A DNA stretch of 64,000 bases, taken from assembly GCF_058153355.1 (NCBI RefSeq), contig NZ_CM177019.1; one strand, 5' to 3'. A program made the position numbers and the translations under genes. Shown piece by piece: positions 5,966 to 21,898 of the stretch. The notes under the pieces are model-generated. The model saw nothing but the letters and a program-made list of their open reading frames with translations, was not told the origin of the DNA and made no database searches. How positions within the stretch are numbered: the first letter of the stretch is position 1; each line of letters opens with the position of its first letter.

Positions 5966-6180
5966 GCCGAGTCCTTTGTGCGAGGAAAAATATCAGTATG
6001 GCCTGGTGATGGGAAAAAGGGCAGAAAATGTTGATGGTTTGTTACTTCCCAATAAATCACATATTTATCATGGTGATATAAATATTTTCCTAATTGTTCT
6101 TATCTGACAGATATCTCACTTAAGGCTTTCTTATAAATCTGTAGGGTTTGCACCATGAGTGCGGTAGCTATGAGGTTTAT

Positions 6181-8493
6181 ATGTCCTCAGAAGGATTACG
6201 TTTCACGCTGTCGGTGGCCGGTATCGTGGAGATGGCGACGGCGGTGGTGAGCTTCCGTCTGTACCAGCACCACTGCACGCCGTTCATCCTGGATGTGGAT
6301 ATCGCCAGCGGGCTGCCCGACCTGACGGCGGAGGATTTTCTGGAGAAGAGCGCGGTGCTGACGGTCTGGCAGGGTGATATCCCGCAGCGTTACGTCAGCG
6401 GTATCGTGACGGAGGTGCAGCTCGGTGAGAACAACGACTGGCAGATGCGTTATTCCCTGAGCATCAGCCCGCCGCTGTGGCGGGCAGGGTTACGGCAGAA
6501 CTTCCGTATCTTCCAGCAGCAGGACATTCAGACGATATCAGCACAGCTTCTGAGAGAGAACGGGGTGACGGCGTGGATGCCGCTGTTCTATGAGGCGCAC
6601 CCGGCGCGGGAGTTCTGCGTGCAGTACGGGGAGAGCGACCTGGCATTCCTGACCCGGCTGTGGGCGGAGGAAGGTATCTTCTTTTATGAGCGCTGCGGTC
6701 AGGAAGGGCCGGAGCAGAAGCTGGCGGTGTGTGATGACGTGGCGGGGCTGACGGGAATGGGGGCGCTGGCGTTTAACCCGAATACCACGACCGGGGGAAC
6801 GACGGAGTACATCAGTGAGTTTCGTTACCGTGCGCAGATAAGCGTGGCGTCGGTGGAGACGCAGGATTATACGTTCAAAACGCCGGGGTGGCCGGGGTAC
6901 TACAGCCATGACGGGGAGAGCCTGAACGGGCAGGGAACGCAGTACGAGATATTTGATTATCCGGGGCGTTTCAAGGATGAGCAGCATGGCCAGGATTTTG
7001 CGCGTTACCAGACGGAAGGGTGGCGGAACGGGGCGGAGACGGCGAGCGGGGTGTGTAACACGGCGCGGCTGTGGCCGGGAACGCGGTTCCGGCTGACGGG
7101 CCATCCCTCAGAGACGCTGAACCGGGAATGGCAGGTTGTGGGAAGCACACTGCGGGGAGAACAGCCGCAGGCGCTGCACGGGAGTCACGGTGAAGGGACG
7201 ACACTGAGCAATCAGTTTGAGGTGATACCGGCAGACAGGACGTGGCGTCACGCGCCGCTGCCGAAGCCGAAGGTGGACGGCCCGCAGAGTGCCATCGTGA
7301 CCGGGCCGAAGGGTGAGGAGATATTCTGCGACGAGCATGGCCGGGTACGGGTGAAGTTTCACTGGGACCGTTATCACGGGATGACGGAGGAGAGTTCGTG
7401 CTGGATACGGGTGTCGCAGGCATGGGCGGGACCGGGGTTCGGCAATCTGGCGATACCGCGTGTGGGTCAGGAAGTGATAGTGGACTTTCTGAACGGCGAC
7501 CCGGACCAGCCCATTGTGACGGGGCGGACCTACCATGAAGATAACCGTTCACCGGGGGATTTACCGGGCACGCGGACGCAGATGACCATCCGCTCGAAGA
7601 CCTATAAAGGAAGCGGCTTTAATGAACTGCGTTTCGAGGATGCGACGGACAGTGAGCAGGTGTATATCCACGCGCAGAAGAACATGGACACGGAGGTGCT
7701 TAACGACCGGACGACGGACGTGAAGCATGACCATACGGAGACCATCGGTAACGACCAGAAGATAAGGGTGGTGAAGGGGCAGACGGTTGAGGTCGGCACC
7801 AGAAAAGAAGGGGGTCACGACCAGAGTATCACGGTGGCGAACGACCGGCGCATAACGGTACGTAATGACCAGACGCTGAAGGTGACGAATGACCGGACGG
7901 TGAGCGTGAGTCACGATGACGGCCTGTATGTCAGAAACGACCGTAAAGTGACGGTGGAAGGGAAGCAGGAGCATAAGACGACGGGGAACCATATCAGCCT
8001 GGTGGAGGGAAAGCACAGTCTGGAGGTGAAGGGCGACCTGGCGGAGAAGGTGAGTGGCGCGCTGGGGATCAAGGTGGACGGGGATATCGTGCTGGAGAGC
8101 AGCAGCCGGATAAGCCTGAAAGTGGGCGGCTCGTTCGTGGTGATACACTCTGGCGGTGTGGATATTGCGGGGCCGAAGATAAACCTCAACGGGGGAGGCA
8201 GTCCGGGGACGCCAGTACAGACGTTACAACCGGTGGTACTGGAGGCGCTGGAGGATGAGAATGATGATGAGAACCCTGAAAAATATACTCTCCAGTTCCA
8301 TTTTACAGACGATGACGGGATACCGTATTCAGAGACACGCTACATTGCCTTCTTTGAGGACGGCACGCAGACGCGAGGGGAGACGGATGAAAATGGGTAT
8401 ACGGAAACATTCTCCACTGACAGCGAGCAGACAATCGAAGTCAGATTGTTGCATTTGAATATCGATATGATATGGGGAGGGATTAATGAATAG
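6181..8493 (+). CDS. vgrG: T6SS spike protein VgrG (copy 1) with C-terminal transthyretin-like extension
   Basis: N-terminus MSSEGLRFTLSV... typical of VgrG; GAGG RBS 5 nt upstream of the ATG at 6181 (the track ORF start at 6148 is an in-frame upstream ATG); gp27/gp5-like repeats; about 90 aa extension after the PKINLNGGGSPGTP end of the conserved core. Confidence 0.9.
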   Translation: MSSEGLRFTLSVAGIVEMATAVVSFRLYQHHCTPFILDVDIASGLPDLTAEDFLEKSAVLTVWQGDIPQRYVSGIVTEVQLGENNDWQMRYSLSISPPLWRAGLRQNFRIFQQQDIQTISAQLLRENGVTAWMPLFYEAHPAREFCVQYGESDLAFLTRLWAEEGIFFYERCGQEGPEQKLAVCDDVAGLTGMGALAFNPNTTTGGTTEYISEFRYRAQISVASVETQDYTFKTPGWPGYYSHDGESLNGQGTQYEIFDYPGRFKDEQHGQDFARYQTEGWRNGAETASGVCNTARLWPGTRFRLTGHPSETLNREWQVVGSTLRGEQPQALHGSHGEGTTLSNQFEVIPADRTWRHAPLPKPKVDGPQSAIVTGPKGEEIFCDEHGRVRVKFHWDRYHGMTEESSCWIRVSQAWAGPGFGNLAIPRVGQEVIVDFLNGDPDQPIVTGRTYHEDNRSPGDLPGTRTQMTIRSKTYKGSGFNELRFEDATDSEQVYIHAQKNMDTEVLNDRTTDVKHDHTETIGNDQKIRVVKGQTVEVGTRKEGGHDQSITVANDRRITVRNDQTLKVTNDRTVSVSHDDGLYVRNDRKVTVEGKQEHKTTGNHISLVEGKHSLEVKGDLAEKVSGALGIKVDGDIVLESSSRISLKVGGSFVVIHSGGVDIAGPKINLNGGGSPGTPVQTLQPVVLEALEDENDDENPEKYTLQFHFTDDDGIPYSETRYIAFFEDGTQTRGETDENGYTETFSTDSEQTIEVRLLHLNIDMIWGGINE

Positions 8494-8576
8494 AGAGTGA
8501 CCGCCTGTAATTGGCGTGTTTTTGCATAAATGGAACAGGGTTTTGTAGTGAAAACATATTGCTAAGGAGGATTTAT

Positions 8577-9422
8577 ATGGGAGATGGAAAGGGTAGTACG
8601 AGCGGAAAAAGCCAGAGCGGTGAACAGTGTGTAGTTTTAAAGGAGGGAAAAATTACTAATGATTTTAAAATAATGATGAGAGAGGCTCTGAAGGCGCTGA
8701 TGGCTGTATTGAAGAAAAGAGTAGAAGATCTTGGTGATAAATGGGGAGAGGAACAAAATCAGGAGTTTATAAATATATTTGGTATTGATGGAAATACTTA
8801 TATTAAATTAGAGTTCCCTTTCGGGGGGCGTAAGGTTATGTTTCCAGAGAATATAAAGGCAAGGGATTATATGAGAAATGGCGTTACTCGCCTGTATGAG
8901 ATATGTGGGGAATTATCTGTGGAAGGTGATTGTGTAGACGTTACTATTCATGACCATTTCCTCAAACGTGATGCCAATTGTAATCTTGTTCTTAATGACA
9001 AAGGGGGTAATGAATATGTTGACAAAGACGTAATCAGGCCCAAAACCGGTAACTTTGTGAATTGTACAGATAATGACGCTTATGCTGCCAATGTAACTTA
9101 CGATCAGATTTTGGGTGTAAAACCTGGAGGCTTTAAAAGTTTGGTAAGTATAACTATAGGACAAAGATTTATAGATAGGCCACCCACTGGGAAAAACTCT
9201 AAGGCATCGACACTCTGCCATGAACTATCTCACTTTATAAGGTACGGGGATTCATTTAAGTTTGGAGGCATGTGGACGGAAGATATGCCGGTAGATATAG
9301 AGTATAATACAGGTGACGAATATATTGTTCATGCCACTAAATTAAAAAATGATAAAAAATCAGAACTATTTCAGAATGCATATAATATCGAACGTTATTT
9401 CGAGATTCATGTACCATATTGA
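8577..9422 (+). CDS. hypothetical protein with HExxH zinc-metallopeptidase-like motif; candidate VgrG1 cargo effector
   Basis: ATG at 8577 preceded by AAGGAGG RBS; 281 aa; motif CHELSHF (HExxH) near the C-terminus followed by acidic NTGDEY; strongly AT-rich next to GC-rich vgrG; directly downstream of vgrG1. Confidence 0.6.
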   Translation: MGDGKGSTSGKSQSGEQCVVLKEGKITNDFKIMMREALKALMAVLKKRVEDLGDKWGEEQNQEFINIFGIDGNTYIKLEFPFGGRKVMFPENIKARDYMRNGVTRLYEICGELSVEGDCVDVTIHDHFLKRDANCNLVLNDKGGNEYVDKDVIRPKTGNFVNCTDNDAYAANVTYDQILGVKPGGFKSLVSITIGQRFIDRPPTGKNSKASTLCHELSHFIRYGDSFKFGGMWTEDMPVDIEYNTGDEYIVHATKLKNDKKSELFQNAYNIERYFEIHVPY

Positions 9423-9446
9423 TGCTTTTATTTGACGGGGGAGTAT

Positions 9447-10355
9447 ATGCTTGCTAGATGGATTGTTTTTATTGTTTTTTTTGCGCATCCAATATTTGCT
9501 TATGATATCTCTGGCGATTATGCTGTTCATTACAGATATGGGAAGTTATATTGGAATGGAGTAATGGACAAACTTGGTGTCTATCCTCGTGTAGAGCCGA
9601 CAAGGCTTAATTATTATGATTATTATGATGATCTTTCAGCCTATGCTGTTTTTCAATATTATACTATCAGTAAAAATGAGAGTCAGTATAATCAAGATAA
9701 AAATAAAATATATCTTCATCTTTCCGTGCATCAGAAAGAAAATATTGTAGCAGCTGCAGTGGTTTTATCGAATAAAAGCCAGGGATCTTATTTTGTTCAT
9801 CGACTAACTCTTCCTCTTGACGTTAACGGCGGGCCTTACTCTTCCTTGTGTAGTGGTGTGTTTATACCGATAATGGATAACATTCAGTTGGATTTTTTAA
9901 AAAAAACAAAATGTAGCTTTGGTGAATGGAAAAATAAATCCGTTTGGCACGAGATATTAACAGGGAAAGAGCTATCCTTTGATGTCATATTGAACGATTA
10001 TTATGCCTTTTTACCGGGCATTCATCGTTATAATATAGGAACGGTAGAATTTACAATAGTTAATCAAGAGTGGTTTACAGAACAATGTATATATGAGTAT
10101 TTTCTTTCTATTATGAACTGGCGGGCAGAAAGTGAGTGTACTAATCCTATAGATAAAATAAGATATGGTATAGAGGAGTGGCGGGTTTGGAGAATTTGTG
10201 GACCTTATCGTGGGTCAGGTCTATTTCAGGATTTTTTAGCACGCTTTGGCTATCATGGCGGTAATGATAATATATTCAAAATAAGATCAAATCAGGTTGT
10301 GGTTACTATTGATGGGGATAGGGCATCTCCTCCTTATTCGTTGAGGAATTATTAA
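9447..10355 (+). CDS. hypothetical secreted protein (N-terminal signal peptide); candidate immunity or partner of the upstream HExxH protein
   Basis: ATG at 9447 with GGGGGAG RBS; N-terminus MLARWIVFIVFFAHPIFA is a typical Sec signal peptide; Tyr/Trp-rich, AT-rich; starts 25 nt after the stop of the previous gene. Confidence 0.55.
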   Translation: MLARWIVFIVFFAHPIFAYDISGDYAVHYRYGKLYWNGVMDKLGVYPRVEPTRLNYYDYYDDLSAYAVFQYYTISKNESQYNQDKNKIYLHLSVHQKENIVAAAVVLSNKSQGSYFVHRLTLPLDVNGGPYSSLCSGVFIPIMDNIQLDFLKKTKCSFGEWKNKSVWHEILTGKELSFDVILNDYYAFLPGIHRYNIGTVEFTIVNQEWFTEQCIYEYFLSIMNWRAESECTNPIDKIRYGIEEWRVWRICGPYRGSGLFQDFLARFGYHGGNDNIFKIRSNQVVVTIDGDRASPPYSLRNY

Positions 10356-10510: not shown

Positions 10511-12712
10511 ATGTCATTAAAAGGGCTGCGCTTTACGCTGACGGTGGACGGACTGGTGCCGGAGACGTTTGCGGTGGTGGATTTCCGCCTCACGCAGGCA
10601 TACTCATCGCCGTTCGTCCTGGATGTGGACGTTGCCAGCGACTCGTTCCGCCAGACGGCGGAGAAGCTGCTGGAGAAGGGGGCCGTACTGACCATCTGGC
10701 AGGGTGGCACGGCGCTGCGTTATGTGAGCGGTGTGGTGTCGGGGTTCGGCATGAAGGAGCACAACGGCTGGCAGATGCAGTACCACCTTCAGATACGTCC
10801 GCCCCTGTGGCGCAGCGGGCTGCGCCAGAACTACCGAATCTTCCAGCAGCAGGACATTCAGGCCATCTCCGCCACGCTGTTAAACGAGGACGGAGTGACG
10901 CAGTGGACGCCGCGCTTTTATGAGAGCCACCCGGCACGGGAGTTCTGCGTCCAGTACGGTGAAAGCGACATGGCGTTTCTGACCCGGCTGTGGGCGGGGG
11001 AAGGCATCTTCTTTTATGACAGATACGCTGACGACAGCCCGGAGCAGACGCTCACGCTGTGCGATGATGTGGCGGGCCTGCCGGTGTACGGGGAGATACC
11101 GTTTAACCCGAACACCCGTGAGGTGACGACGGCGTGCATCAGCCTGTTCCGCTACCAGGCGCAGGTGCGGCCCTCGCAGGTGCGTTCAAAAGACCACACG
11201 TTTAAGGTGCCGGACTGGCCGGGTATTTACATTGAGGATGCTGAAAACCTCAACGGGCAACTGAAGCAGTACAAAATCCTGGACTGGCCGGGGCGCTACA
11301 AGGACGAGCAGCATGGTCAGGACTTTACCCGCTACCGGCTGGAAGGGCTGCGTAACAGTGCTGAAACCGCCACAGGTATCAGTAACTCCCCGGCGCTGTG
11401 GCCGGGACGGCGGTTCACCTTGACGGGGCATCCGGTACAGGGAGCGAACCCGAACCGTGAGTGGCAGGTGGTGAGCAGCACGCTGACGGGGAGCCAGCCG
11501 CAGGCGCTGCACGGGAGTCACGGTGAAGGGACGACACTGAGCAATCAGTTTGAGGTGATACCGGCAGACAGGACGTGGCGTCACGCGCCGCTGCCGAAGC
11601 CGAAGGTGGACGGCCCGCAGAGTGCCATCGTGACCGGGCCGAAGGGTGAGGAGATATTCTGCGACGAGCATGGCCGGGTACGGGTGAAGTTTCACTGGGA
11701 CCGTTATCACGGGATGACGGAGGAGAGTTCGTGCTGGATACGGGTGTCGCAGGCATGGGCGGGACCGGGGTTCGGCAATCTGGCGATACCGCGTGTGGGT
11801 CAGGAAGTGATAGTGGACTTTCTGAACGGCGACCCGGACCAGCCCATTGTGACGGGGCGGACCTACCATGAAGATAACCGTTCACCGGGGGATTTACCGG
11901 GCACGCGGACGCAGATGACCATCCGCTCGAAGACCTATAAAGGAAGCGGCTTTAATGAACTGCGTTTCGAGGATGCGACGGACAGTGAGCAGGTGTATAT
12001 CCACGCGCAGAAGAACATGGACACGGAGGTGCTTAACGACCGGACGACGGACGTGAAGCATGACCATACGGAGACCATCGGTAACGACCAGAAGATAAGG
12101 GTGGTGAAGGGGCAGACGGTTGAGGTCGGCACCAGAAAAGAAGGGGGTCACGACCAGAGTATCACGGTGGCGAACGACCGGCGCATAACGGTACGTAATG
12201 ACCAGACGCTGAAGGTGACGAATGACCGGACGGTGAGCGTGAGTCACGATGACGGCCTGTATGTCAGAAACGACCGTAAAGTGACGGTGGAAGGGAAGCA
12301 GGAGCATAAGACGACGGGGAACCATATCAGCCTGGTGGAGGGAAAGCACAGTCTGGAGGTGAAGGGCGACCTGGCGAGGAAGATTACCGGTGCGCTGGGA
12401 ATGAAGGTCCGGAATGAAATCGTACTGGAGAGTGGCGGTAAAATCACCCTAAAGGTGGGTGGTTCGTTTGTGGTCATCCATTCAGGGGGCGTGGACATCG
12501 TCGGGCCGAAAATCAATCTCAATAGCGGCGGTAGTCCGGGAACGCCGGTGCCGACGCTACGACCGGCGGTTTTGAAAGCGCTGGCAGATTATGACAATGG
12601 CGGACCTGGAACTGAAGGGGCGGAGCCACCACGGAAAAGTGTACAGGAAGCCTTTGATCCTCCCCAGCAGGATAAGGTACCGCCACAACGGCCGGGAAGA
12701 TTCTCACGATAA
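10511..12712 (+). CDS. vgrG: T6SS spike protein VgrG (copy 2) with short Pro-rich C-terminal tail
   Basis: 733-aa ORF, N-terminus MSLKGLRFTLTVDGL...; central about 0.88 kb is nucleotide-identical to vgrG1; GGAGG RBS upstream. Confidence 0.92.
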   Translation: MSLKGLRFTLTVDGLVPETFAVVDFRLTQAYSSPFVLDVDVASDSFRQTAEKLLEKGAVLTIWQGGTALRYVSGVVSGFGMKEHNGWQMQYHLQIRPPLWRSGLRQNYRIFQQQDIQAISATLLNEDGVTQWTPRFYESHPAREFCVQYGESDMAFLTRLWAGEGIFFYDRYADDSPEQTLTLCDDVAGLPVYGEIPFNPNTREVTTACISLFRYQAQVRPSQVRSKDHTFKVPDWPGIYIEDAENLNGQLKQYKILDWPGRYKDEQHGQDFTRYRLEGLRNSAETATGISNSPALWPGRRFTLTGHPVQGANPNREWQVVSSTLTGSQPQALHGSHGEGTTLSNQFEVIPADRTWRHAPLPKPKVDGPQSAIVTGPKGEEIFCDEHGRVRVKFHWDRYHGMTEESSCWIRVSQAWAGPGFGNLAIPRVGQEVIVDFLNGDPDQPIVTGRTYHEDNRSPGDLPGTRTQMTIRSKTYKGSGFNELRFEDATDSEQVYIHAQKNMDTEVLNDRTTDVKHDHTETIGNDQKIRVVKGQTVEVGTRKEGGHDQSITVANDRRITVRNDQTLKVTNDRTVSVSHDDGLYVRNDRKVTVEGKQEHKTTGNHISLVEGKHSLEVKGDLARKITGALGMKVRNEIVLESGGKITLKVGGSFVVIHSGGVDIVGPKINLNSGGSPGTPVPTLRPAVLKALADYDNGGPGTEGAEPPRKSVQEAFDPPQQDKVPPQRPGRFSR

Positions 12713-12721
12713 GGACTGAAC

Positions 12722-15211
12722 ATGAAAATCAGCCATCCCATCAGGGATAAAGAAGGCAAAGAGTTTCGCTCACTGGATGAGATAATGCGGCTTATTGACA
12801 AAGAAGCGCACGGAACCTGGCTGCTGGGTGGAAACGGGCTGTGGCACGGCGGGATACATATCAGTGACGTGTCTAATCCGTTATCAGCCCTGAAACCGGA
12901 TACCGCCGCTACCGGAGAACCGGTTCCTCTTCAGTTTATGGCCGATGGCACCATTGCGGCGTACCGGATAAATAATGATTACCTGAAAGGCCCCTACAAA
13001 GGGCAGCAACTCCGTTACAGCAGCACATTTGTTCTGGTGAAATCGCAGTGCCAGCCAGACCCGCAAAAAAAAGAAAGCTGGCTGGAATTTTACTGTCTCT
13101 ATATGCATCTGGCCCCGGTGAACGATTATCCCGGCTCCCCCTGCTATAAAGTTAAAACCGGGCATGGTGGCATATTGCTGCACCGATACATCCCGGGAAA
13201 GAACGGCCTTCCCGAGGGGCAGGAAAGCGGAGATCATGCCACGTACTGGATACCCCCGAAAATCAGCGGAAACAGGACACTTAATGCGGGAGATCGGTTT
13301 GTGTCATCCCGGACCGGACGTTTTTACGTGACCAATAACGGCCAGCCGGTCCTGACGACATTCGGACTGGTTCGCCTGCTGGAAGGCAATAAACCGGGGA
13401 ATGAGCAGTACTGGGTGACCCTGGATCCGGATCTGATGGAGTCAGATGGCGAAATACAGATGCTGATGCCTGAGTGGATGCAGAAGGCGAAGGCAAAAGG
13501 CATTTTTGACTCGGTACAGACGGTCGACGAAACGGAAGAGTGGAAAGTCAGTGCCGGAACACCGGTCGGATTTATGGGATGCGAGGATTATCCTGGCGAG
13601 GGAAGCGGTGAGATTGAGCGCGAGTGGTTCGTCCATCTGGAGGTTCTGAGTACAGACCCGAATATGCCAAAGTTCTTATCCAACCCGGCAGGCGTTAAGG
13701 GAGAAAAACGGACTGTTCTGGCACCAAAAGGGATAATTTTATACACCCGGCAGGCCGTTCCGGGACAGGAGGTATTTACCGCAACCGCAGCCACGCTGGG
13801 TGCTCAGCGCGTTCTTCCGCGGGAAGCCACGACACCAGTCACGGATGAATCGCAGCAGTGGTGGTTTAATATCACCGGAACCGGCTGGCTGCCACAAAAG
13901 GATGTTGAAGAGGCCGGACAGTATGATTTACTGAAGCTGGGTTTTCAACCGCTGGAGGAGAACAGCAGCGGTGACATGACGTACAGCCCGTACGAAGGAT
14001 GGGTGCCGGAAGCGTTTGACTCAATAAGCCGTGCCGCAGAACAGGGAGATGAGTGGCTGTATGAGCAGGTACCGCCCTTTTATCGTGAGCTGATGGCGGG
14101 TATGGATCAGGACGGTGATGGAAAAGTGACGGAGGAAGAGATCAGACAGGCGCTGATCGTGCGTGAACCACTGGTGAGAAATGTGGTGAATCATCTGATA
14201 GTTAAACACCACAGCGAATGGTACGGAGGGCGCTCGACAGGGCGGTGGGAAGGATTTTATAAAGATCTGGATACAGAGGAAGTGGCATACTGTGAGAAGT
14301 GGCAGCTGGATCTGGAGTGGATGAGCGGGGTATCTCCGTTTAATAGTGATGATGCTGTGTGGCATTTTCATCCGGTTGTGTTTTTGGACGCTATTAATTC
14401 CAAATCTGTGTGTGCTTGCAACAGAGATATAACATTAGATGAATTAAAAAAAGTTGCTCCTGCAGTAAGTGAAGGTCTTCTCAAAAGGTACCTCTACGAT
14501 ATAAATGCAGGGTTTATTCGGTTTGGTATGACCACTTGTAGAGAAAAAGCCCATTTTCTTGCTCAAATTATTCACGAGAGCGGTTATTTTAGATATACCA
14601 AAGAAATTAATGGTGAATCAGCTTCATATAGTCCGTGGTATGGCCGAGGCTTAATACAAGTTACAGGCGAAAGTAATTACACCGCCTATGGGGAATATAT
14701 CAATGAGGACGTAACATCTTCAGATTCCGCAAGAGATAAACTCATATCCTCCCCACATTGCGTATTATCTGCGTTTTGGTATTTCAATATATTCAAAAGA
14801 ATAAATGAAGATGCTAAAAATGATGATTTTAATAAAATTACAGTAGTGATTAATGGAGGGTATAATCATTATGATGAACGGTTGTCGATATTTAATAAAT
14901 TGGTTACCTCACTTGCTGCCGAGCATTTAAATCAGAAAGAAATGAACGACGATTTCTTGTTTGATGATAGTGACGTATATGATAATAAAGTATATGCTTT
15001 GGGATGGGGGATATGGCATGATCCTGATAGCTCCCGAAGAGGGACGATCAAGAGTAACGAAGAAGCATTAAAAGGTTATAGAAGGGCGAAAGAATTAATT
15101 GACCTGCATCCGTTTCCTCAGGAAGGGCGTGAGGGTGATAGAAAAGTATATGGAATAGAAAAAAGGAATATATCCACATTTGTAGAGAGACGAATAACTG
15201 AACTGGAGTAA
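12722..15211 (+). CDS. modular T6SS effector candidate: unknown N-terminal domain, EF-hand, C-terminal GH19 (chitinase/lysozyme-like) peptidoglycan hydrolase domain
   Basis: 829-aa ORF 9 nt after the vgrG2 stop; canonical EF-hand loop DQDGDGKVTEEE; C-terminal motifs AHFLAQIIHESG and YGRGLIQVTGESNY match GH19-family catalytic signatures; the C-terminal third is AT-rich compared with the N-terminal part. Confidence 0.75.
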   Translation: MKISHPIRDKEGKEFRSLDEIMRLIDKEAHGTWLLGGNGLWHGGIHISDVSNPLSALKPDTAATGEPVPLQFMADGTIAAYRINNDYLKGPYKGQQLRYSSTFVLVKSQCQPDPQKKESWLEFYCLYMHLAPVNDYPGSPCYKVKTGHGGILLHRYIPGKNGLPEGQESGDHATYWIPPKISGNRTLNAGDRFVSSRTGRFYVTNNGQPVLTTFGLVRLLEGNKPGNEQYWVTLDPDLMESDGEIQMLMPEWMQKAKAKGIFDSVQTVDETEEWKVSAGTPVGFMGCEDYPGEGSGEIEREWFVHLEVLSTDPNMPKFLSNPAGVKGEKRTVLAPKGIILYTRQAVPGQEVFTATAATLGAQRVLPREATTPVTDESQQWWFNITGTGWLPQKDVEEAGQYDLLKLGFQPLEENSSGDMTYSPYEGWVPEAFDSISRAAEQGDEWLYEQVPPFYRELMAGMDQDGDGKVTEEEIRQALIVREPLVRNVVNHLIVKHHSEWYGGRSTGRWEGFYKDLDTEEVAYCEKWQLDLEWMSGVSPFNSDDAVWHFHPVVFLDAINSKSVCACNRDITLDELKKVAPAVSEGLLKRYLYDINAGFIRFGMTTCREKAHFLAQIIHESGYFRYTKEINGESASYSPWYGRGLIQVTGESNYTAYGEYINEDVTSSDSARDKLISSPHCVLSAFWYFNIFKRINEDAKNDDFNKITVVINGGYNHYDERLSIFNKLVTSLAAEHLNQKEMNDDFLFDDSDVYDNKVYALGWGIWHDPDSSRRGTIKSNEEALKGYRRAKELIDLHPFPQEGREGDRKVYGIEKRNISTFVERRITELE

Positions 15212-15216
15212 TTGAT

Positions 15217-15627
15217 ATGAAAGTTAATTTATTGGTTTTACTGTTTTGTTTGGTGCCTTGTTGTTTATTGGCTAAACAACAAACAACGGTAGGCTGTTTT
15301 AGCGCTGGGAAAACAAATTTAAAGTTTGTTGAAATATCGTCTGGCGATATTTTTTTAGGTTATGTGATTTATGAGAAATCCTCAAAATTTATACCTCTTG
15401 CGTTTATAAATAAATTAGAAGTGACTTTCGATGACAGGCCTTCTGAATTTTCTTATGCATGGAGCGAGGTTGTAAATGGAAAAATTAATGGGTTGTATGT
15501 TGTTTCCACACAAGGTGCAAGATTTAATTTGTTTCATTATAAATCAATAAGTGGGAAAACAACTGAGTTTGAAGAAAATATTGAGGCATATAATGATGAT
15601 GGTACTGATTGCAAATGGACTGGATGA
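15217..15627 (+). CDS. putative periplasmic immunity protein for the GH19-type effector
   Basis: 136-aa ORF starting 6 nt after the effector stop; N-terminal signal peptide MKVNLLVLLFCLVPCCLLA; AT-rich like the toxin domain. Confidence 0.6.
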   Translation: MKVNLLVLLFCLVPCCLLAKQQTTVGCFSAGKTNLKFVEISSGDIFLGYVIYEKSSKFIPLAFINKLEVTFDDRPSEFSYAWSEVVNGKINGLYVVSTQGARFNLFHYKSISGKTTEFEENIEAYNDDGTDCKWTG

Positions 15628-15789: not shown

Positions 15790-17070
15790 AAAGATCACGT
15801 AACGCTGCTTTTTTGTACTATACAATTCGCATTTTATGTTTGAAAATTGAGATATTCCTCATTACCTGAAGCTGTTTTTTATTGCTTATACATGATCAAA
15901 TACTCCTTACATAATTAAGGAGAACAAAATGGTACTTAAAAAATTGATGGAACATATTTCTATTATCCCCGATTACAGACAAGCCTGGAAAGTGGAACAT
16001 AAATTATCGGATATTCTACTGTTGACTATTTGCGCCGTTATTTCGGGTGCAGAAGGCTGGGAAGATATAGAGGATTTTGGGGAAACACATCTCGATTTTT
16101 TGAAGCAATATGGTGATTTTGAAAATGGTATTCCTGTTCACGATACCATTGTCAGAGTTGTATCCTGTATCAGTCCTGCAAAATTTCACGAGTGCTTTAT
16201 TAACTGGATGCGTGACTGCCATTCTTCAGATGATAAAGGCGTCATTGCAATTGATGGAAAAACGCTCCGGCACTCTTATGACAAGAGTCGCCGCAGGGGA
16301 GCGATTCATGTCATTAGTGCGTTCTCAACAATGCACAGTCTGGTCATCGGACAGATCAAGACGGATGAGAAATCCAATGAGATTACAGCTATCCCAGAAC
16401 TTCTTAACATGCTGGATATTAAAGGAAAAATCATCACAACTGATGCGATGGGTTGCCAGAAAGATATTGCAGAGAAGATACAAAAACAGGGAGGTGATTA
16501 TTTATTCGCGGTAAAAGGAAACCAGGGGCGGCTAAATAAAGCCTTTGAGGAAAAATTTCCGCTGAAAGAATTAAATAATCCAGATCATGACAGTTAAGCG
16601 ATTAGTGAAAAGAGTCACGGCAGAGAAAAAATCCGTCTTCATATTGTTTGCGATGTCCCTGATGAACTTATTGATTTCACGTTTGAATGGAAAGGTCTGA
16701 AGAAATTATGCGTGGCAGTCTCCTTTCGGTTAATAATAGCAGAACAAAAGAAAGAGCCAGAAATGACGGTCAGATATTATATCAGTTCTGCTGATTTAAC
16801 CGCAGAGAAGTTCGCCACAGCAATCCGAAACCACTGGCACGTGGAGAATAAGCTGCACTGGCGTCTGGACGTGGTAATGAATGAAGACGACTGCAAAATA
16901 AGAAGAGGAAACGCCGCAGAATTATTTTCAGGGATACGGCACATCGCTATTAATATTTTAACGAATGATAAGGTATTCAAGGCAGGGTTAAGACGTAAGA
17001 TGCGAAAAGCAGCCATGGACAGAAACTATCTCGCGTCAGTCCTTGCGGGGAGCGGGCTTTCGTAATCTTG
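15790..17070 (+). mobile_element. H-repeat (H-rpt) element, ISAs1 family, nearly full length
   Basis: Encodes the H-repeat-associated transposase-like protein; its 5' end, including about 140 bp upstream of the ATG, recurs at 19865-20290 and in degenerate form at 21975-22635; element boundaries are approximate. Confidence 0.75.
15929..17065 (+). pseudogene. ISAs1-family (H-repeat-associated) transposase, interrupted by a single in-frame TAA
   Basis: ORFs 15929-16597 and 16712-17065 are in the same frame (669 and 114 nt offsets are multiples of 3) and separated only by TAA at 16598-16600; combined length about 378 codons, the size of intact H-rpt proteins. Confidence 0.75.
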
Positions 17071-17075
17071 CCCTG

Positions 17076-19492
17076 GAGGTGATACCGGCGGACAGGACGT
17101 GGCGTCACGCGCCCCTGCCGAAGCCGAAGGTGGACGGCCCGCAGAGTGCCATCGTGACCGGGCCGAAGGGCGAGGAGATATTCTGCGACGAGCATGGCCG
17201 GGTACGGGTGAAGTTTCACTGGGACCGTTATCACGGGATGACGGAGGAGAGTTCATGCTGGATACGGGCGTCGCAGGCATGGGCGGGACCGGGGTTCGGC
17301 AATCTGGCGATACCGCGTGTGGGTCAGGAAGTGATAGTGGACTTTCTGAACGGCGACCCGGACCAGCCCATTGTGACGGGGCGGACATACCATGAGGACA
17401 ACCGTTCACCGGGGGATTTACCGGGCACGCGGACGCAGATGACCATCCGCTCGAAGACCTATAAAGGAAGCGGCTTTAATGAACTGCGTTTCGAGGATGC
17501 GACGGACAGTGAGCAGGTGTATATCCACGCGCAGAAGAACATGGACACGGAGGTGCTTAACGACCGGACGACGGACGTGAAGCATGACCATACGGAGACC
17601 ATCGGTAACGACCAGAAGATAAGGGTGGTGAAGGGGCAGACGGTTGAGGTCGGCACCAGAAAAGAAGGGGGTCACGACCAGAGTATCACGGTGGCGAACG
17701 ACCGGCGCATAACGGTACGTAATGACCAGACGCTGAAGGTGACGAATGACCGGACGGTGAGCGTGAGTCACGATGACGGCCTGTATGTCAGAAACGACCG
17801 TAAAGTGACGGTGGAAGGGAAGCAGGAGCATAAGACGACGGGGAACCATATCAGTCTGGTGGAGGGAACGCACAGTCTGGAGGTGAAGGGCGACCTGGCG
17901 AGGAAGATTACCGGTGCGCTGGGAATGAAGGTCCGGGATGAAATCGTACTGGAGAGTGGTGGTAAAATCACCCTGAAGTGGGTGGCTCGTTTGTGGTCGT
18001 TCATTCTGGTGGTGTGGATATTGTCGGACCGAAAATAAATCTGAATTGCGGGCGCAGTCCGGGGACGCCGATAAATACACTACAACCGGCAGTTATGGAC
18101 GCTCTGGCTGACGAGCAGTATGACAGAGGGAATGCTGGCGGCGGGAATGACGGAGAGCCTAGTGATGAGGATGAATCAGAAGGTGGAGAAGAAGACAAGG
18201 ACGATTCAGATGAACTGGTAATTCCTGTATACGCAAAATCTTGTCTGAAGGAGAAAGGCTGCACTGATGCTGGTACGACCATGGAGCCATCGAAACATTT
18301 TGGTGATATGGCTCTATTTGCCCAGCCAGTGGAGGATGACTGTTGCGGCTATGGTACACACTATCATGACGATGAAGTGGAGCAACTTGCGCAGTCAGCA
18401 AAAAAAACCTCAGGAGCGAACTCACTGACGGGGGAAATGACAGTTGCGTCAGCGGGTGTTGCGGTTCCACTAGCGGCGGAACAGTCTGCGGGAGTTTTAA
18501 CTCGCGTATGGGGAACATTAGGGGCATGGGGTGGAGAAGGTTTTTTAAGTGTATCAAAAACGGTGCCAGCCCTTGGTGTCCTAGTATCAGCACTATATCC
18601 AATACCTGCCGGTGAAGGTAGTGATAAAGTTCCTGGACGGGATGAACAGTGGCTCGAAAATGAGCTACGTCGTAAAGCGCAATCTGGAGAGACGGCAGCT
18701 ACGCGGGCGCGCTTTCTCTTTCAGCGGAATACTGCTGGTGAATTGAGGACATACGGATACCACACACCCGCAGGTTCGGAACTTGAAGGTGTTCGGGTAG
18801 CATTGATGGAGTGGAATAAGGAATTTTCCCGTTATGAATTTTCACCTGTGTCTGATTCGGGACCAAAAATATTTTGGACGCCTGCAAAGCCAGAAGGTTC
18901 AGAGCAGCCCATACACACCGGAACTCCTGTCGAACCAGTTGATCTACCTGATATTTATGTTAATCCGATACCCGATGAAAAAACAGATATCACCACGCCG
19001 CCTTCTCCAATGCCGGAGGAGCGAAATTTTAATGACTGGATACTTGTCTTTCCTGACGGTGCGGAATTAACACCAATATATGTGTATCTGAAAACTGCAA
19101 GGGATGTAGCGGGAACAGTAACAGGTAAGGGGGAGGTGTTAGCAGGTACAGGAAGATGGCTGTCGCAGGCGGGGAAAAGCTTAGGAGTGCCAATTCCACA
19201 ACAGGTCGCAAATAAACTTCGGAGTAAGTCATTTAACAATTTTGATGAATTCATGGCAGCTTTCTGGACTGCTGTAGGTGAATGTCCAGAACTATTGAGC
19301 CAATTTAATAAAGCTAACCAAACGTTGATAAAGCGTGGACGCGCACCTTATACTATATCAAGACAAAGAGTTGGGGGGCGAGGTACATTTGAAATTCATC
19401 ATATTGACGAAATCCAATATGGGGGAGAAGTCTATGATATTGATAATCTTAGAGTAAACACACCTAAAAACCACATACGATTGCATAAATAA
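17076..19492 (+). pseudogene. 5'-truncated, frameshifted vgrG (copy 3) fused to colicin E9-like HNH DNase toxin domain
   Basis: vgrG homology begins abruptly at about 17076, right after the H-rpt end, so the N-terminal half is missing; a 1-nt deletion near 17977 (ctgaagtgggtgg here, ctaaaggtgggtgg in vgrG2) splits the reading frame; C-terminal domain ...GRGTFEIHHIDEIQYGGEVYDIDNLRVNTPKNHIRLHK matches the colicin E9/E7 DNase HNH motif. Confidence 0.8.
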
Positions 19493-19505: not shown

Positions 19506-19778
19506 ATGGAGTTTAAAAATAATCTAGAAGATTATACGGAAGATGAATTTATCGAACTTCTAAATAATTTTTTTGAACCACCTGAGGAATTGCATGGCGA
19601 TAAGTTGTCGAAGTTTATTGATGATCTTGTAAGTCATTTTATTAGAATCACTCAGCACCCAGATGGTAGTGATTTGATATTCTATCCATCTGAAGATAGA
19701 GAAGATAGTCCCCAAGGGATTGTTGATGAGTTAAAACGATGGCGAGCATCGCAGGGGCTAGGATGCTTTAAAATATAA
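19506..19778 (+). CDS. colicin DNase-type immunity protein (Im9/Im7-like)
   Basis: 90-aa ORF 14 nt after the DNase stop with GGAGG RBS; MEFKNNLEDYTEDEFIELL...HPDGSDLIFYP...DSPQGIV...RWRASQG aligns with the Im9 family (DYTE.EF, HP.GSDLI.YP, DSP.GIV). Confidence 0.85.
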   Translation: MEFKNNLEDYTEDEFIELLNNFFEPPEELHGDKLSKFIDDLVSHFIRITQHPDGSDLIFYPSEDREDSPQGIVDELKRWRASQGLGCFKI

Positions 19779-19864: not shown

Positions 19865-20295
19865 GAAAGATCACCAGAAGTACACTTTTTGTACTAAATA
19901 ATTCGCATTTTATGTTCAATAATTGAGATATTCCTCATTACCTGAGGCTGTTTTTTATTGCTTATACATGATCAAATACTCCTTACATAATTAAGGAGAA
20001 CAAAATGGAACTTAAAAAATTGATGGAACATATTTCTGTTATTCCTGATTACAGACAAGCCTGGAAAGTGGAACATAAATTGTCGGATATTCTACTTTTG
20101 ACTATTTGCTCCGTCATTTCTGGTACAGAAGGCTGGCAAGATATAGAGAATTTTGGGGAAACACATCTCGATTTTTTGAAGCGACATGGTGATTTTTGAA
20201 ATGGTATTCCTGTTCACATACCATTGCCAGAGTTGTATCCTGTATCAGCCCTGCAAAATTTCATGAGTGCTTTATTAAAAGGAAACCAGGGGCGG
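19865..20295 (+). mobile_element. H-repeat 5' fragment (includes truncated 64-codon transposase ORF 20005-20199)
   Basis: Near-identical to 15790-16210 of the full H-rpt; the ORF ends prematurely (GDF then stop); joined through a short internal H-rpt piece (GNQGRL) to effector-derived sequence. Confidence 0.75.
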
Positions 20296-21465
20296 CTTAA
20301 TATCACCGGAACCGGCTGGCTGCCACAAAAGGATGTTGAAGAGGCCGGACAGTATGATTTACTGAAGCTGGGTTTTCAACCGCTGGAGGAGAACAGCAGC
20401 GGTGACATGACGTACAGCCCGTACGAAGGATGGGTGCCGGAAGCGTTTGACTCAATAAGCCGTGCCGCAGAACAGGGAGATGAGTGGCTGTATGAGCAGG
20501 TACCGCCCTTTTATCGTGAGCTGATGGCGGGTATGGATCAGGACGGTGATGGAAAAGTGACGGAGGAAGAGATCAGACAGGCGCTGACCGTGCGTGAACC
20601 ACTGGTGAGAAATGTGGTGAATCGTCTGACAGTCAGACACCACAGCGAGTGGTACGGCGGTCGCTCGACGGGACGCTGGGAAGGGTTTTATAAAGATCTG
20701 GACACCGAGGAAGTGGCATACTGTGAAAAGTGGCAGCTGGATCTGGAGTGGATGAGCGGGGTGTCTCCGTTTAATAGTGATGATGCTGTGTGGCATTTTC
20801 ATCCGGTTGTGTTTTTGAATGCTATTAATAATAGCAATTACCCAAAAACTCCTGTGAATAATGAACTTATTCCATTGGAATTTTTACGATTTTATAACGG
20901 AGATACCATTGATGATGCAGACTATGAAAATGCTGCAAGGACACTACAATGCGAAGTGGCTGCAATTAAAGCTGTTGCAAAAACTGAAACTGGTAGTTCC
21001 GGTAGCTATTTTAAATTTGAACAAGAAGATGATTACGTCCCCTCAATTCTTTTTGAAAGACATCATTTCCATCGATATACGAATGGTGTGTATGATTCTC
21101 AACCTGATATTTCCAACAGCCGTTCTGGCGGTTATGGAACACGATCGGAGCAATATCAAAAATTACTTCGTGCATATGTTTTAGATAAGCAAGCTGCGCT
21201 TAAATCGGCATCGTGGGGTAAATTTCAGATATTGGCTTCAAATTACCAAGCTACCGGGTACTCTTCGCCCGAAGAGTTTATAATATCGATTTCAGAGTTA
21301 GAGAAAAACCATCTGGCGGCATTCATTAACTTCATAAAATCTAATCCTGTATTATTGCGTGCTATTAGAGATAAAGATTGGCTTAACTTTGCTCTATGTT
21401 ATAATGGGCAAAGTCAGCGAGGATATGATGACAGAATAAGGGCTAATTATGAGCAATATAGATAG
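20224..21465 (+). CDS. orphan, N-terminally truncated effector module: conserved EF-hand middle region plus alternative C-terminal N-acetylmuramidase (DUF3380-like) domain
   Basis: Residues from NITGTGWLPQKDVEEAG through HPVVFL are about 95% identical at nucleotide level to 13865-14395 of the 829-aa effector, then diverge into a C-terminus with ILFERHHFHRYT, SWGKFQILASNY and LCYNGQSQ motifs typical of the DUF3380 muramidase family; the first 20 codons derive from H-rpt sequence in another frame. Confidence 0.7.
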   Translation: MPELYPVSALQNFMSALLKGNQGRLNITGTGWLPQKDVEEAGQYDLLKLGFQPLEENSSGDMTYSPYEGWVPEAFDSISRAAEQGDEWLYEQVPPFYRELMAGMDQDGDGKVTEEEIRQALTVREPLVRNVVNRLTVRHHSEWYGGRSTGRWEGFYKDLDTEEVAYCEKWQLDLEWMSGVSPFNSDDAVWHFHPVVFLNAINNSNYPKTPVNNELIPLEFLRFYNGDTIDDADYENAARTLQCEVAAIKAVAKTETGSSGSYFKFEQEDDYVPSILFERHHFHRYTNGVYDSQPDISNSRSGGYGTRSEQYQKLLRAYVLDKQAALKSASWGKFQILASNYQATGYSSPEEFIISISELEKNHLAAFINFIKSNPVLLRAIRDKDWLNFALCYNGQSQRGYDDRIRANYEQYR

Positions 21466-21898
21466 AGCATTAATTTTTATTTTTTTATCTGGAATTCCCT
21501 GGACTCTACACGCAGGAAATAATTATTTTTTATGTAATACATCCAAAGGAACTTTGTCATTAACAAGTTTTGGTGAAACGTTGATTTATGAAATGAATAG
21601 TCAGCATGGGAATAAATTTCAATTCATTTCAGATGGACCAATGTATTCAGGATTTTTTTATAATCATTACTCCAGATTTCAAACGGATTACTTTAGCGTT
21701 AGTTTTATTCAAAGTGGATATAAGTACTCCGTGTTTAGCAATTACGACAACGGTAGTAACATGCGAGGGGTTAGTGTCATTGATATGAAAACAAAAAAAG
21801 AATACGTTTATAATTGCAAAGATTATAAAGTGGACAGGCTTTATAATCTGAAAAAAAAGCTTAAATGTGATATTAATAATGTACTAAGTTGTCAGTAA
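21449..21898 (+). CDS. putative periplasmic immunity protein for the orphan muramidase domain
   Basis: 149-aa ORF overlapping the toxin stop by 17 nt; N-terminal signal peptide (MSNIDRALIFIFLSGIPWTLHA); AT-rich. Confidence 0.55.
   Translation: MSNIDRALIFIFLSGIPWTLHAGNNYFLCNTSKGTLSLTSFGETLIYEMNSQHGNKFQFISDGPMYSGFFYNHYSRFQTDYFSVSFIQSGYKYSVFSNYDNGSNMRGVSVIDMKTKKEYVYNCKDYKVDRLYNLKKKLKCDINNVLSCQ

Follow-up and report, generated by a model that had tools for sequence, protein, structure and literature searches.

The gene pair considered here lies directly behind vgrG2 in a 64,000-nucleotide (nt) stretch of Escherichia coli DNA (the window; contig NZ_CM177019.1, NCBI RefSeq assembly GCF_058153355.1) that represents the yibF-mtlA vgrG island, and it encodes an 829-amino acid (aa) protein followed by a 136-aa protein, whose closest described counterparts are type VI secretion system (T6SS) effectors and immunity proteins. 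One of these effectors is TseP of Aeromonas dhakensis SSU, an 845-aa protein whose C-domain (structure 8XCL) is a lysozyme and whose residues 1-603 were reported to be a Zn-dependent N-acetylmuramoyl-L-alanine (NAM-L-Ala) amidase, with the M23 protein 3SLU as the modelling template (eLife 2025, PMC11893102). In that study, H19, H23, H109, H339, H359 and E539 were listed as conserved residues of the N-domain (TseP-N), mutation of the EF-hand had no phenotype, and the N-part was approximately 10% richer in guanine plus cytosine (GC) than the C-part. Further, TseP-N and TseP-C both bound the upstream VgrG2 and were both neutralised by the downstream TsiP, and one E. coli protein appeared in the Foldseek lists of both domains (PMC11893102).

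The second counterpart is the WHIX class, named for a WHxxxH motif and defined by a bipartite domain found in 4,434 proteins, 2,242 of which carry 'chitinase-like' C-termini, the commonest type (PMC12135965). Salomon and co-workers reported that WHIX suffices for T6SS secretion, that WHIX of Awe1 shows no toxicity alone in the periplasm, and that the last 11-14 aa of VgrG4 are needed for WHIX binding; in their prediction, the domain has a deep cavity with which it caps VgrG at its C-terminal tail (PMC12135965). In a third system, SARI_02625, the C-terminal region was toxic in the periplasm and its immunity protein rescued partly; the effector was called novel and TseP was left unmentioned (PMC12992299).

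In line with these systems, the 829-aa protein and the 136-aa protein are very probably a subclass I WHIX T6SS cargo effector and its immunity protein, a conclusion drawn from their anatomy, homology, fold, gene context and cassette boundaries. By analogy with the described systems, the WHIX domain would dock on the C-terminal tail of VgrG2 (...VPPQRPGRFSR), so that the effector would leave the cell on the spike. Once in the periplasm of the prey, a domain of the glycoside hydrolase family 19 (GH19) type (aa 564-735, with E619 and E628, plus a 94-aa tail) would cleave the glycan strands of peptidoglycan, and the 136-aa protein, presumably exported via Sec, would neutralise the toxin in sibling cells. 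As in TseP, the WHIX part might in addition act as a Zn-dependent N-acetylmuramoyl-L-alanine amidase. The class, its commonest architecture and a near-identical protein (WP_000703217.1) are already present in the 2025 literature, so that the toxin-immunity pair is real, not new. The features of the locus, with open reading frames abbreviated as ORFs, are as follows.

10511-12712, plus strand: vgrG2, spike protein and predicted effector carrier (733 aa; TIGR03361 VgrG, E=3e-176).
12677-12709, plus strand: C-terminal tail of VgrG2, VPPQRPGRFSR, predicted WHIX docking peptide (similar tails on other WHIX-linked VgrGs).
12722-15211, plus strand: ORF of the probable subclass I WHIX effector with GH19-type C-terminal toxin (829 aa; 824/829 identical to WP_000703217.1).
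12818-13126, plus strand: WHIX region 1, aa ~33-135, first half of the M23/LytM-like fold, containing Y127-M-H129-L.
12842-12859, plus strand: WHxxxH motif, W41 H42 G G I H46 (H42 and H46 invariant in 85 diverse relatives).
13127-13543, plus strand: beta-rich insert separating WHIX regions 1 and 2, aa ~136-274.
13544-14401, plus strand: WHIX region 2, aa ~275-560, with AGxxxGxxG...V-H305-L-E307-V, the EF-hand, KHHSEW (496-500) and WHFHP (547-551).
14105-14140, plus strand: Ca-binding loop of the EF-hand, aa 462-473, DQDGDGKVTEEE (Pfam EF-hand_1, E=8.7e-4).
14360-14401, plus strand: recombination junction WHFHPVVFLDAIN, aa 547-560, probable swap site of the C-terminal toxin (identity breaks, GC drop).
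14411-14926, plus strand: aa 564-735, predicted glycoside hydrolase domain for peptidoglycan, GH19-type and endolysin-like (PHROG, PDB and Foldseek matches).
14927-15208, plus strand: helical C-terminal tail of 94 aa, aa 736-829 (only 7 homolog clusters).
15217-15627, plus strand: predicted periplasmic immunity protein, 136 aa, with signal peptide aa 1-19 and conserved Cys27 and Cys132.

Both ORFs lie where a preliminary description of this DNA had placed them, and the EF-hand, the two GH19 strings and the AT-rich C-terminus that it named are all present, as judged by motif positions and by the drop in GC. The effector ORF begins 9 nt past the vgrG2 stop codon, and the 136-aa ORF starts 5 nt past the effector stop, with GGAG 8 nt before its ATG. 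The N-terminus of the effector is hydrophilic, without a Sec signal. The EF-hand has a canonical 12-residue loop, DQDGDGKVTEEE, with the Pfam match spanning aa 455-478, and the GH19 strings occupy aa 610-621 (AHFLAQIIHESG) and aa 640-653 (YGRGLIQVTGESNY). Along the effector, the GC content declines from 0.535 (aa 1-420) through 0.508 (aa 421-563) to 0.367 (aa 564-829), and the immunity gene has a value of 0.324; at third codon positions (GC3) the corresponding values are 0.59, 0.53, 0.29 and 0.24. Neither the effector nor the 136-aa protein was matched in NCBIfam or PADLOC.

Residues 1 to ~560 of the effector constitute one bipartite WHIX domain, a T6SS secretion module. The three-part layout proposed earlier reduces to two parts, in that its N-terminal part of ~380 aa and its EF-hand-containing middle part are a single domain. 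The apparently new and uncharacterised 380-aa N-terminal domain is, moreover, the module published in March 2025 as WHIX (PMC12135965) and TseP-N (PMC11893102). Indeed, WP_000703217.1, the product of the orthologous gene of strain MFDS1022581, is included in the supplementary sequence file and in the tree of the WHIX study (PMC12135965). BLASTP of effector aa 2-562 against WP_097513094.1, an example from Table 1 of that study, gave 7e-55 at ~30% identity, and both this protein and WP_200891482.1, from the same table, fall in clusters matched by our homologue search. The WHIX authors' inclusion thresholds were E<=1e-6 and >=70% coverage (PMC12135965); membership was judged here by BLASTP and dataset identity.

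Homology to TseP-N was assessed via a proxy only, an Aeromonas relative (P0227) whose C-terminus matched 8XCL with 6e-79. This proxy aligned with the effector with 3e-26 over aa 1-193 (35% identity) and with 3e-31 over aa 276-727, and the HxxxH spacing of the effector equals that of TseP-N. The published TseP numbers H19 and H23 do not fit the H42/H46 positions found in every Aeromonas relative retrieved, and none of the proteins retrieved is 845 aa long or carries His at residues 19 and 23. A paper on Pantoea, considered as a possible family match, was discarded, its subject being a VgrG-glucosaminidase.

The homologue search with the effector yielded 277 clusters in which Enterobacterales members share 60-80% identity over the first ~560 aa and the C-terminus varies, comprising GH19, PF11860 muramidase, GH108, M23+GH24, CHAP and pesticin-like domains; GH24 is also found among the other C-termini on the same N-part. 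An exhaustive search with aa 1-560 returned 677 clusters at 50% identity (E<=1e-3), and WHGGIH was near-universal among the 150 representatives listed. A Pfam scan of 85 relatives, one by one, added glucosaminidase, VgrG3-like C, SLT, Anthrax_toxA and Ntox44 to the C-termini, and detected no family covering the N-part, either in these relatives or in the effector, where the EF-hand was the only match. In the alignment of the 85 diverse relatives (A2), H42, H46, H305, E307, P6, G76, R82, F103 and L105 were invariant, and in that of closer relatives (A1) H496, H497, S498, E499, W500, W547, H548, H550 and P551 were invariant as well. Among P0171/P0297 (E. coli, 883 aa) and other relatives in alignment A2, a few carry non-peptidoglycan toxins, namely an Anthrax_toxA-like adenylyl cyclase or Ntox44, and in some WHIX is preceded on its N-terminal side by an additional domain, whether canonical M23, NlpC/P60-like or of another kind; the latter belong to the 'double-blade' subclass II.

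A VgrG is encoded directly upstream of the WHIX effector in 6/6 complete loci examined, while a seventh locus, from Aeromonas (L003), begins at a contig end within a VgrG-like ORF. The VgrG tails ahead of WHIX effectors are VPPQRPGRFSR in E. coli, VQPSRRNRFSR in Cronobacter, VPPRRRGRISR in Klebsiella variicola and VPPQRRGRISR in K. quasipneumoniae, and the Aeromonas VgrG upstream of a WHIX effector ends PPKPKAFFLFSE. Hence, a basic tail, VPP(Q/R)R(P/R)GR(F/I)SR (GR[FI]SR), accompanies WHIX effectors in 4/5 enterobacterial loci, despite the C-terminal region of the E. coli VgrG differing from those of the other three. It was not present on two VgrGs without a following WHIX effector, the product of vgrG1 in the window and a second Klebsiella VgrG. 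The shared tail fits the published tail-capping model.

The fold of the N-domain was modelled for aa 1-418 on an alignment of 85 sequences, with a predicted local distance difference test (pLDDT) of 93.4 and a predicted template modelling score (pTM) of 0.87. The modelled domain has the M23/LytM beta-sheet fold, split by an insert of ~140 aa, and a Foldseek comparison of this model with the PDB returned no match. The canonical M23 motifs, HxxxD and HxH, are replaced by HxxxH (HGGIH) and by F-V-H305-L-E307, in which Phe takes the place of the first His. In view of these non-canonical motifs and of the split fold, the N-domain is called M23-like here and not filed as a member of M23. At the sequence level, Pfam M23 did not match the effector, the family profile did not reach M23 among PDB sequences, and hhalign against a profile of six canonical M23 domains from relatives was not significant (Prob 5.8), although the same alignment set H305 and E307 on the HLHFE motif, which is a lead only.

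A 690-aa relative from E. coli ETEC6335 (L005, 4812-6884) matched Pfam Peptidase_M23 at residues 42-155 (E=3.3e-4), and thereby bridges the WHIX family to M23 by sequence. This compact protein carries SWHGGVHL, YMHL and FHFQIF, its junction reads VWHFDP and its C-terminus is GH19-like; it is annotated as 'M23 family metallopeptidase' and is encoded after a frameshifted vgrG in a different island. A NAM-L-Ala amidase, VT1, of a vgrG island of enterotoxigenic E. coli (Ma et al. 2018) is mentioned in a review (PMC6730261) and might conceivably be the ETEC6335 protein.

An extension of the WHIX effector assignment is that the effector is bifunctional, like TseP, with its M23-like N-domain also acting as a Zn-dependent N-acetylmuramoyl-L-alanine amidase that contributes to killing. 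We regard this as a serious possibility that falls short of being probable. Degenerate, non-catalytic LytM domains usually lose their metal ligands; the invariance across 85 diverged relatives of the three residues that stand where M23 enzymes have metal ligands (H42, H46 and H305), together with E307, therefore favours a retained metal site, and the M23/LytM fold of the modelled N-domain points in the same direction. Besides, TseP-N and the N-domains of two homologues free stem peptides from peptidoglycan in a Zn-dependent manner, an activity lost in His/Glu mutants (PMC11893102). However, HxxxH and FVH stand where HxxxD and HxH would be expected, the family profile found no M23 match by sequence, and binding of a structural metal, or a place in the wall of the pocket for the VgrG tail, would explain the invariant histidines just as well. 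Further, WHIX of Awe1 alone was not toxic in the periplasm (PMC12135965), which together with the non-canonical motifs argues against a major toxic role, and mutating the lysozyme domain alone abolished periplasmic toxicity of TseP (PMC11893102).

The cavity of WHIX may itself be an M23-type active-site groove, in which case both published views, that of a secretion domain and that of an amidase, may hold. The basic, proline-rich VgrG tail would then sit like a pseudo-substrate in a groove lined by H42, H46, H305 and E307, loading the effector and keeping the amidase latent until release in the prey. The M23 fold, the invariant histidines at ligand positions and the presence of one tail on VgrGs with differing bodies are compatible with this idea, which we nevertheless consider rather unlikely. 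The shared VgrG tail and the M23-like fold of WHIX would in this way offer a concrete route to reconcile the two descriptions of the domain.

With regard to the C-terminal toxin, Pfam PF00182 (GH19) gave a weak match (i-Evalue 0.074) restricted to aa 634-677, and 11/85 relatives reached E<=0.001. This Pfam comparison had been proposed in the preliminary description as a check. GH19-type endolysins were significant by both sequence and fold. The domain matched PHROG 181 endolysin with 5e-32 and, among PDB sequences, 9ms7 (2e-13), the SPN1S endolysin 4ok7 (8e-10) and 8XCL, i.e., TseP-C (7.3e-8). The full-length AlphaFold2 model had a pLDDT of 73 overall and of about 85 across the GH19-type domain. 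Foldseek aligned this model with the GH19 endolysins 9ms7, 4ok7, 9eoi and 8p8e and with the chitinase 7f88 (prob 1.00, TM(target) 0.55-0.75), with the chitinase ranking below the endolysin structures, and with 8XCL (1.5e-4, prob 1.00). GH19- or lysozyme-like matches, whose absence would have spoken against the preliminary description, were accordingly obtained in the PHROG, PDB and Foldseek comparisons alike.

The predicted catalytic dyad consists of E619 (HES; nt 14576-14578) and E628 (TKEI; nt 14603-14605), which align with the Glu pair of GH19 endolysins and with E654/655 and E663 of TseP. Taken together, sequence, gene context and fold support an action of the GH19/lysozyme-like domain on peptidoglycan. 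This GH19 subtype (aa 564-735) is confined to 8 homolog clusters, and the 94-aa tail (aa 736-829) to 7, in which it is always attached to this subtype. The tail was without PDB or Pfam match; taken in blocks of 10 residues, its pLDDT lay mostly at 71-95 and fell to 58 at aa 741-750. The tail may form an additional toxin lobe or a surface that binds the immunity protein.

RefSeq and UniRef name the effector 'hypothetical protein', 'chitinase' or 'glycoside hydrolase family 19 protein', and GH19 chitinases of plants and bacteria matched weakly, so that a chitinase serving chitin nutrition, or antifungal or anti-host use, instead of bacterial killing had to be considered. We judge this to be highly improbable. 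Peptidoglycan-degrading GH19 endolysins and TseP-C were far ahead of chitinases (2e-13 vs. 0.02), the effector has no Sec signal and is fused to a T6SS secretion domain after vgrG, and the exported protein of the next gene is of the kind that accompanies periplasm-acting toxins. The matches to phage endolysin families might likewise suggest a fragment of a prophage endolysin or tail lysin that adjoins vgrG by chance. This is barely conceivable, as no phage genes flank the locus, the domain forms one protein with a T6SS-specific WHIX module of 560 aa, and the arrangement after VgrG recurs in many genera. Context and the order in which the matches ranked led us to reject both alternatives, and a WHIX effector directed against peptidoglycan is the reading we retain.

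The 136-aa protein is predicted to be the immunity protein of the effector on the basis of position, signal peptide and co-inheritance. It begins MKVNLLVLLFCLVPCCLLA and continues with KQ, and its mean Kyte-Doolittle hydropathy is 2.0-2.7 when windows of 15 residues begin at any of the first seven positions. The family is small and undescribed, with 12 homolog clusters only, in E. coli, Citrobacter and Cronobacter. In Cronobacter, an orthologous effector (64% identical) is followed by a 60%-identical homologue of the immunity protein that keeps both cysteines, and this pair lies within a TssK-TssL-OmpA-VgrG-...-PAAR-TssM T6SS core cluster. In WHIX relatives with other toxins, the next gene encodes an unrelated signal-peptide protein that varies with the toxin type. 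Homology and context of this kind agree with the view put forward previously, namely a cell-wall glycosidase acting in the periplasm and an exported immunity protein that form a T6SS antibacterial pair.

Compared with relatives that have other C-termini, identity ends at aa 559-562 in 8/10 full-length proteins, just past WHFHPVVFL(D/N)AIN, i.e., at nt ~14400, where the drop in GC also occurs. Toxin and immunity gene together make up a cassette of low GC that joins the WHIX part at WHFHPVVFL, the point at which related effectors exchange such cassettes. The same junction was found again in the window, in an orphan cassette identified by tblastn and blastn and followed by a further small gene.

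20287-21465, plus strand: orphan cassette, 3' end of WHIX joined to an N-acetylmuramidase toxin.
21449-21898, plus strand: ORF of 149 aa whose N-terminus resembles a signal peptide, predicted to give immunity to the orphan muramidase (GC 0.296; role inferred from position only).

The first 543 bp of the orphan (20287-20829) are 96.1% identical at the nt level to 13856-14398, the 3' end of the WHIX region, and identity stops at 14398; the orphan is fused at the same WHFHPVVFLNAIN junction as the intact effector. Its toxin part is identical in 220/224 residues to the C-terminus of a relative with a PF11860 domain (P0005). An ISAs1 remnant (19886-20278) cuts the 5' end of the orphan cassette and truncates this second WHIX gene. 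The stretch at 19886-21898 looks like a displaced or reserve cassette, and could recombine with the intact gene. With its sharp junction, its 17-point drop in GC and an orphan that retains 543 bp at 96% identity, the locus has an unusually clear cassette anatomy.

The gene, detected by its N-part or by its C-part plus the immunity gene, is carried by 3/5426 complete E. coli genomes, and the window is thus a rare E. coli instance of a WHIX effector at the yibF-mtlA vgrG island. The effector was not described in the in-silico effector papers on enterohaemorrhagic and Shiga toxin-producing E. coli or in the Klebsiella and Salmonella surveys. This rarity, together with insertion sequence copies or remnants of the ISAs1 type (15929-17065 and 19886-20278), the fusion of a truncated vgrG with a DNase toxin and the orphan WHIX fragment, raised the question of whether the locus is a decaying, non-functional remnant on an insertion sequence-ridden island whose pair is no longer expressed or delivered. 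In the same vein, no T6SS core genes were noticed among the window ORFs, which were not examined in detail. We consider decay unlikely, because vgrG2, the effector and the immunity gene are all intact, of full length and closely spaced, three strains of different source share the effector at 99% identity, and every family-invariant residue is retained.

Several observations nevertheless weigh against the assignment as a working WHIX effector with its immunity protein. The window gives no sign of a functional T6SS, and the island is littered with ISAs1 remnants and with truncated vgrG and effector fragments. Pfam GH19 itself was not significant on the effector, and the 136-aa protein belongs to no Pfam family, and no resemblance was detected between it and the protein with a signal peptide that is encoded downstream of the Aeromonas TseP orthologue. 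The VgrG of Enterobacter hormaechei (L007), as called, ends differently, without the shared tail. Finally, the amidase function is an uncertain addition, given the non-canonical M23 motifs and the lack of toxicity of WHIX from Awe1.

Other genes in the window were also inspected. Upstream, at 6148-10355, lies vgrG1, whose 781-aa product differs in its C-terminal domain; next come a 303-aa ORF with an HExxH motif (TLCHELSHFI) and a 307-aa ORF whose N-terminus resembles a signal peptide. In strain N96 (L002), the stretch matching this set is annotated as a single 594-aa M35 family metalloendopeptidase. Downstream, the ISAs1 transposase is split into two ORFs (15929-16597 and 16712-17065) and abuts the 5'-truncated vgrG (17043-18038), which runs, with a change of frame, into a 504-aa ORF (17978-19492) ending in an HNH/colicin-DNase-like motif. 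The 90-aa ORF that follows (19506-19778) matched PHROG 37357 (2.7e-24), and related loci are annotated as 'S-type pyocin domain' and 'bacteriocin immunity protein' (H11).

When compared with the described systems, the effector resembles TseP in length (829 vs. 845 aa), in its HxxxH N-domain, EF-hand and GH19-type lysozyme, and in a Glu dyad 8-9 residues apart, as well as in having a VgrG2 carrier upstream, a signal-peptide immunity gene downstream and an N-part of higher GC. It differs from TseP in that identity is only 25-35%, measured to the closest Aeromonas proxy, and in that the immunity proteins are unrelated in sequence, by the Aeromonas TseP orthologue. Further, the GC contrast is 17 points as against ~10 in TseP, the 94-aa C-terminal tail is extra, and the amidase activity reported for TseP is no more than a possibility for the effector.

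The effector shares the WHxxxH motif and the bipartite N-domain of ~550 aa with the WHIX effectors Awe1 of Aeromonas jandaei and WP_005373349.1 of Vibrio alginolyticus (PLoS Biol 2025, PMC12135965), and it has the layout of subclass I, with a 'chitinase-like' toxin, a VgrG directly upstream and a signal-peptide immunity gene downstream. Unlike 'double-blade' WHIX effectors, it has no second N-terminal toxin. WHIX was presented in that paper as a non-toxic secretion domain, and the M23-like fold and the EF-hand were not described there.

The GH19-type phage endolysins (SPN1S, 4OK7; PWe2, 9MS7; 9EOI; KTN6 gp46, 8P8E) have the same fold and motifs (HES...E and GRGxIQxTG) as the C-terminal domain, but they are stand-alone lysis enzymes of ~180-220 aa that act from within, whereas here the domain would be the warhead of an 829-aa protein with a dedicated immunity protein. 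M23/LytM metallopeptidases (LytM, lysostaphin, Csd3, NMB0315 and the LytM domains of EnvC/NlpD) have HxxxD and HxH, in contrast with HxxxH and the missing first His of HxH in the effector, whose fold is split by the insert of ~140 aa and lacks a sequence-level match to them.

SARI_02625/SARI_02624 of Salmonella enterica subsp. arizonae (pathogenicity island SPI-21, PMC12992299) likewise combine an EF-hand, peptidoglycan hydrolase domains behind it and an immunity protein with a signal peptide. By description, SARI_02625 differs from the effector in its canonical M23 plus GH24-type endolysin C-terminus, its length of 1,032 aa and its 276-aa immunity protein. Relatives with a C-terminus of the SARI_02625 type (M23+GH24) are 63-78% identical to the effector in the N-part. 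By the present data, the TseP, WHIX and SARI_02625 papers (PMC11893102, PMC12135965 and PMC12992299), whose conclusions are not connected with one another, deal with one family.

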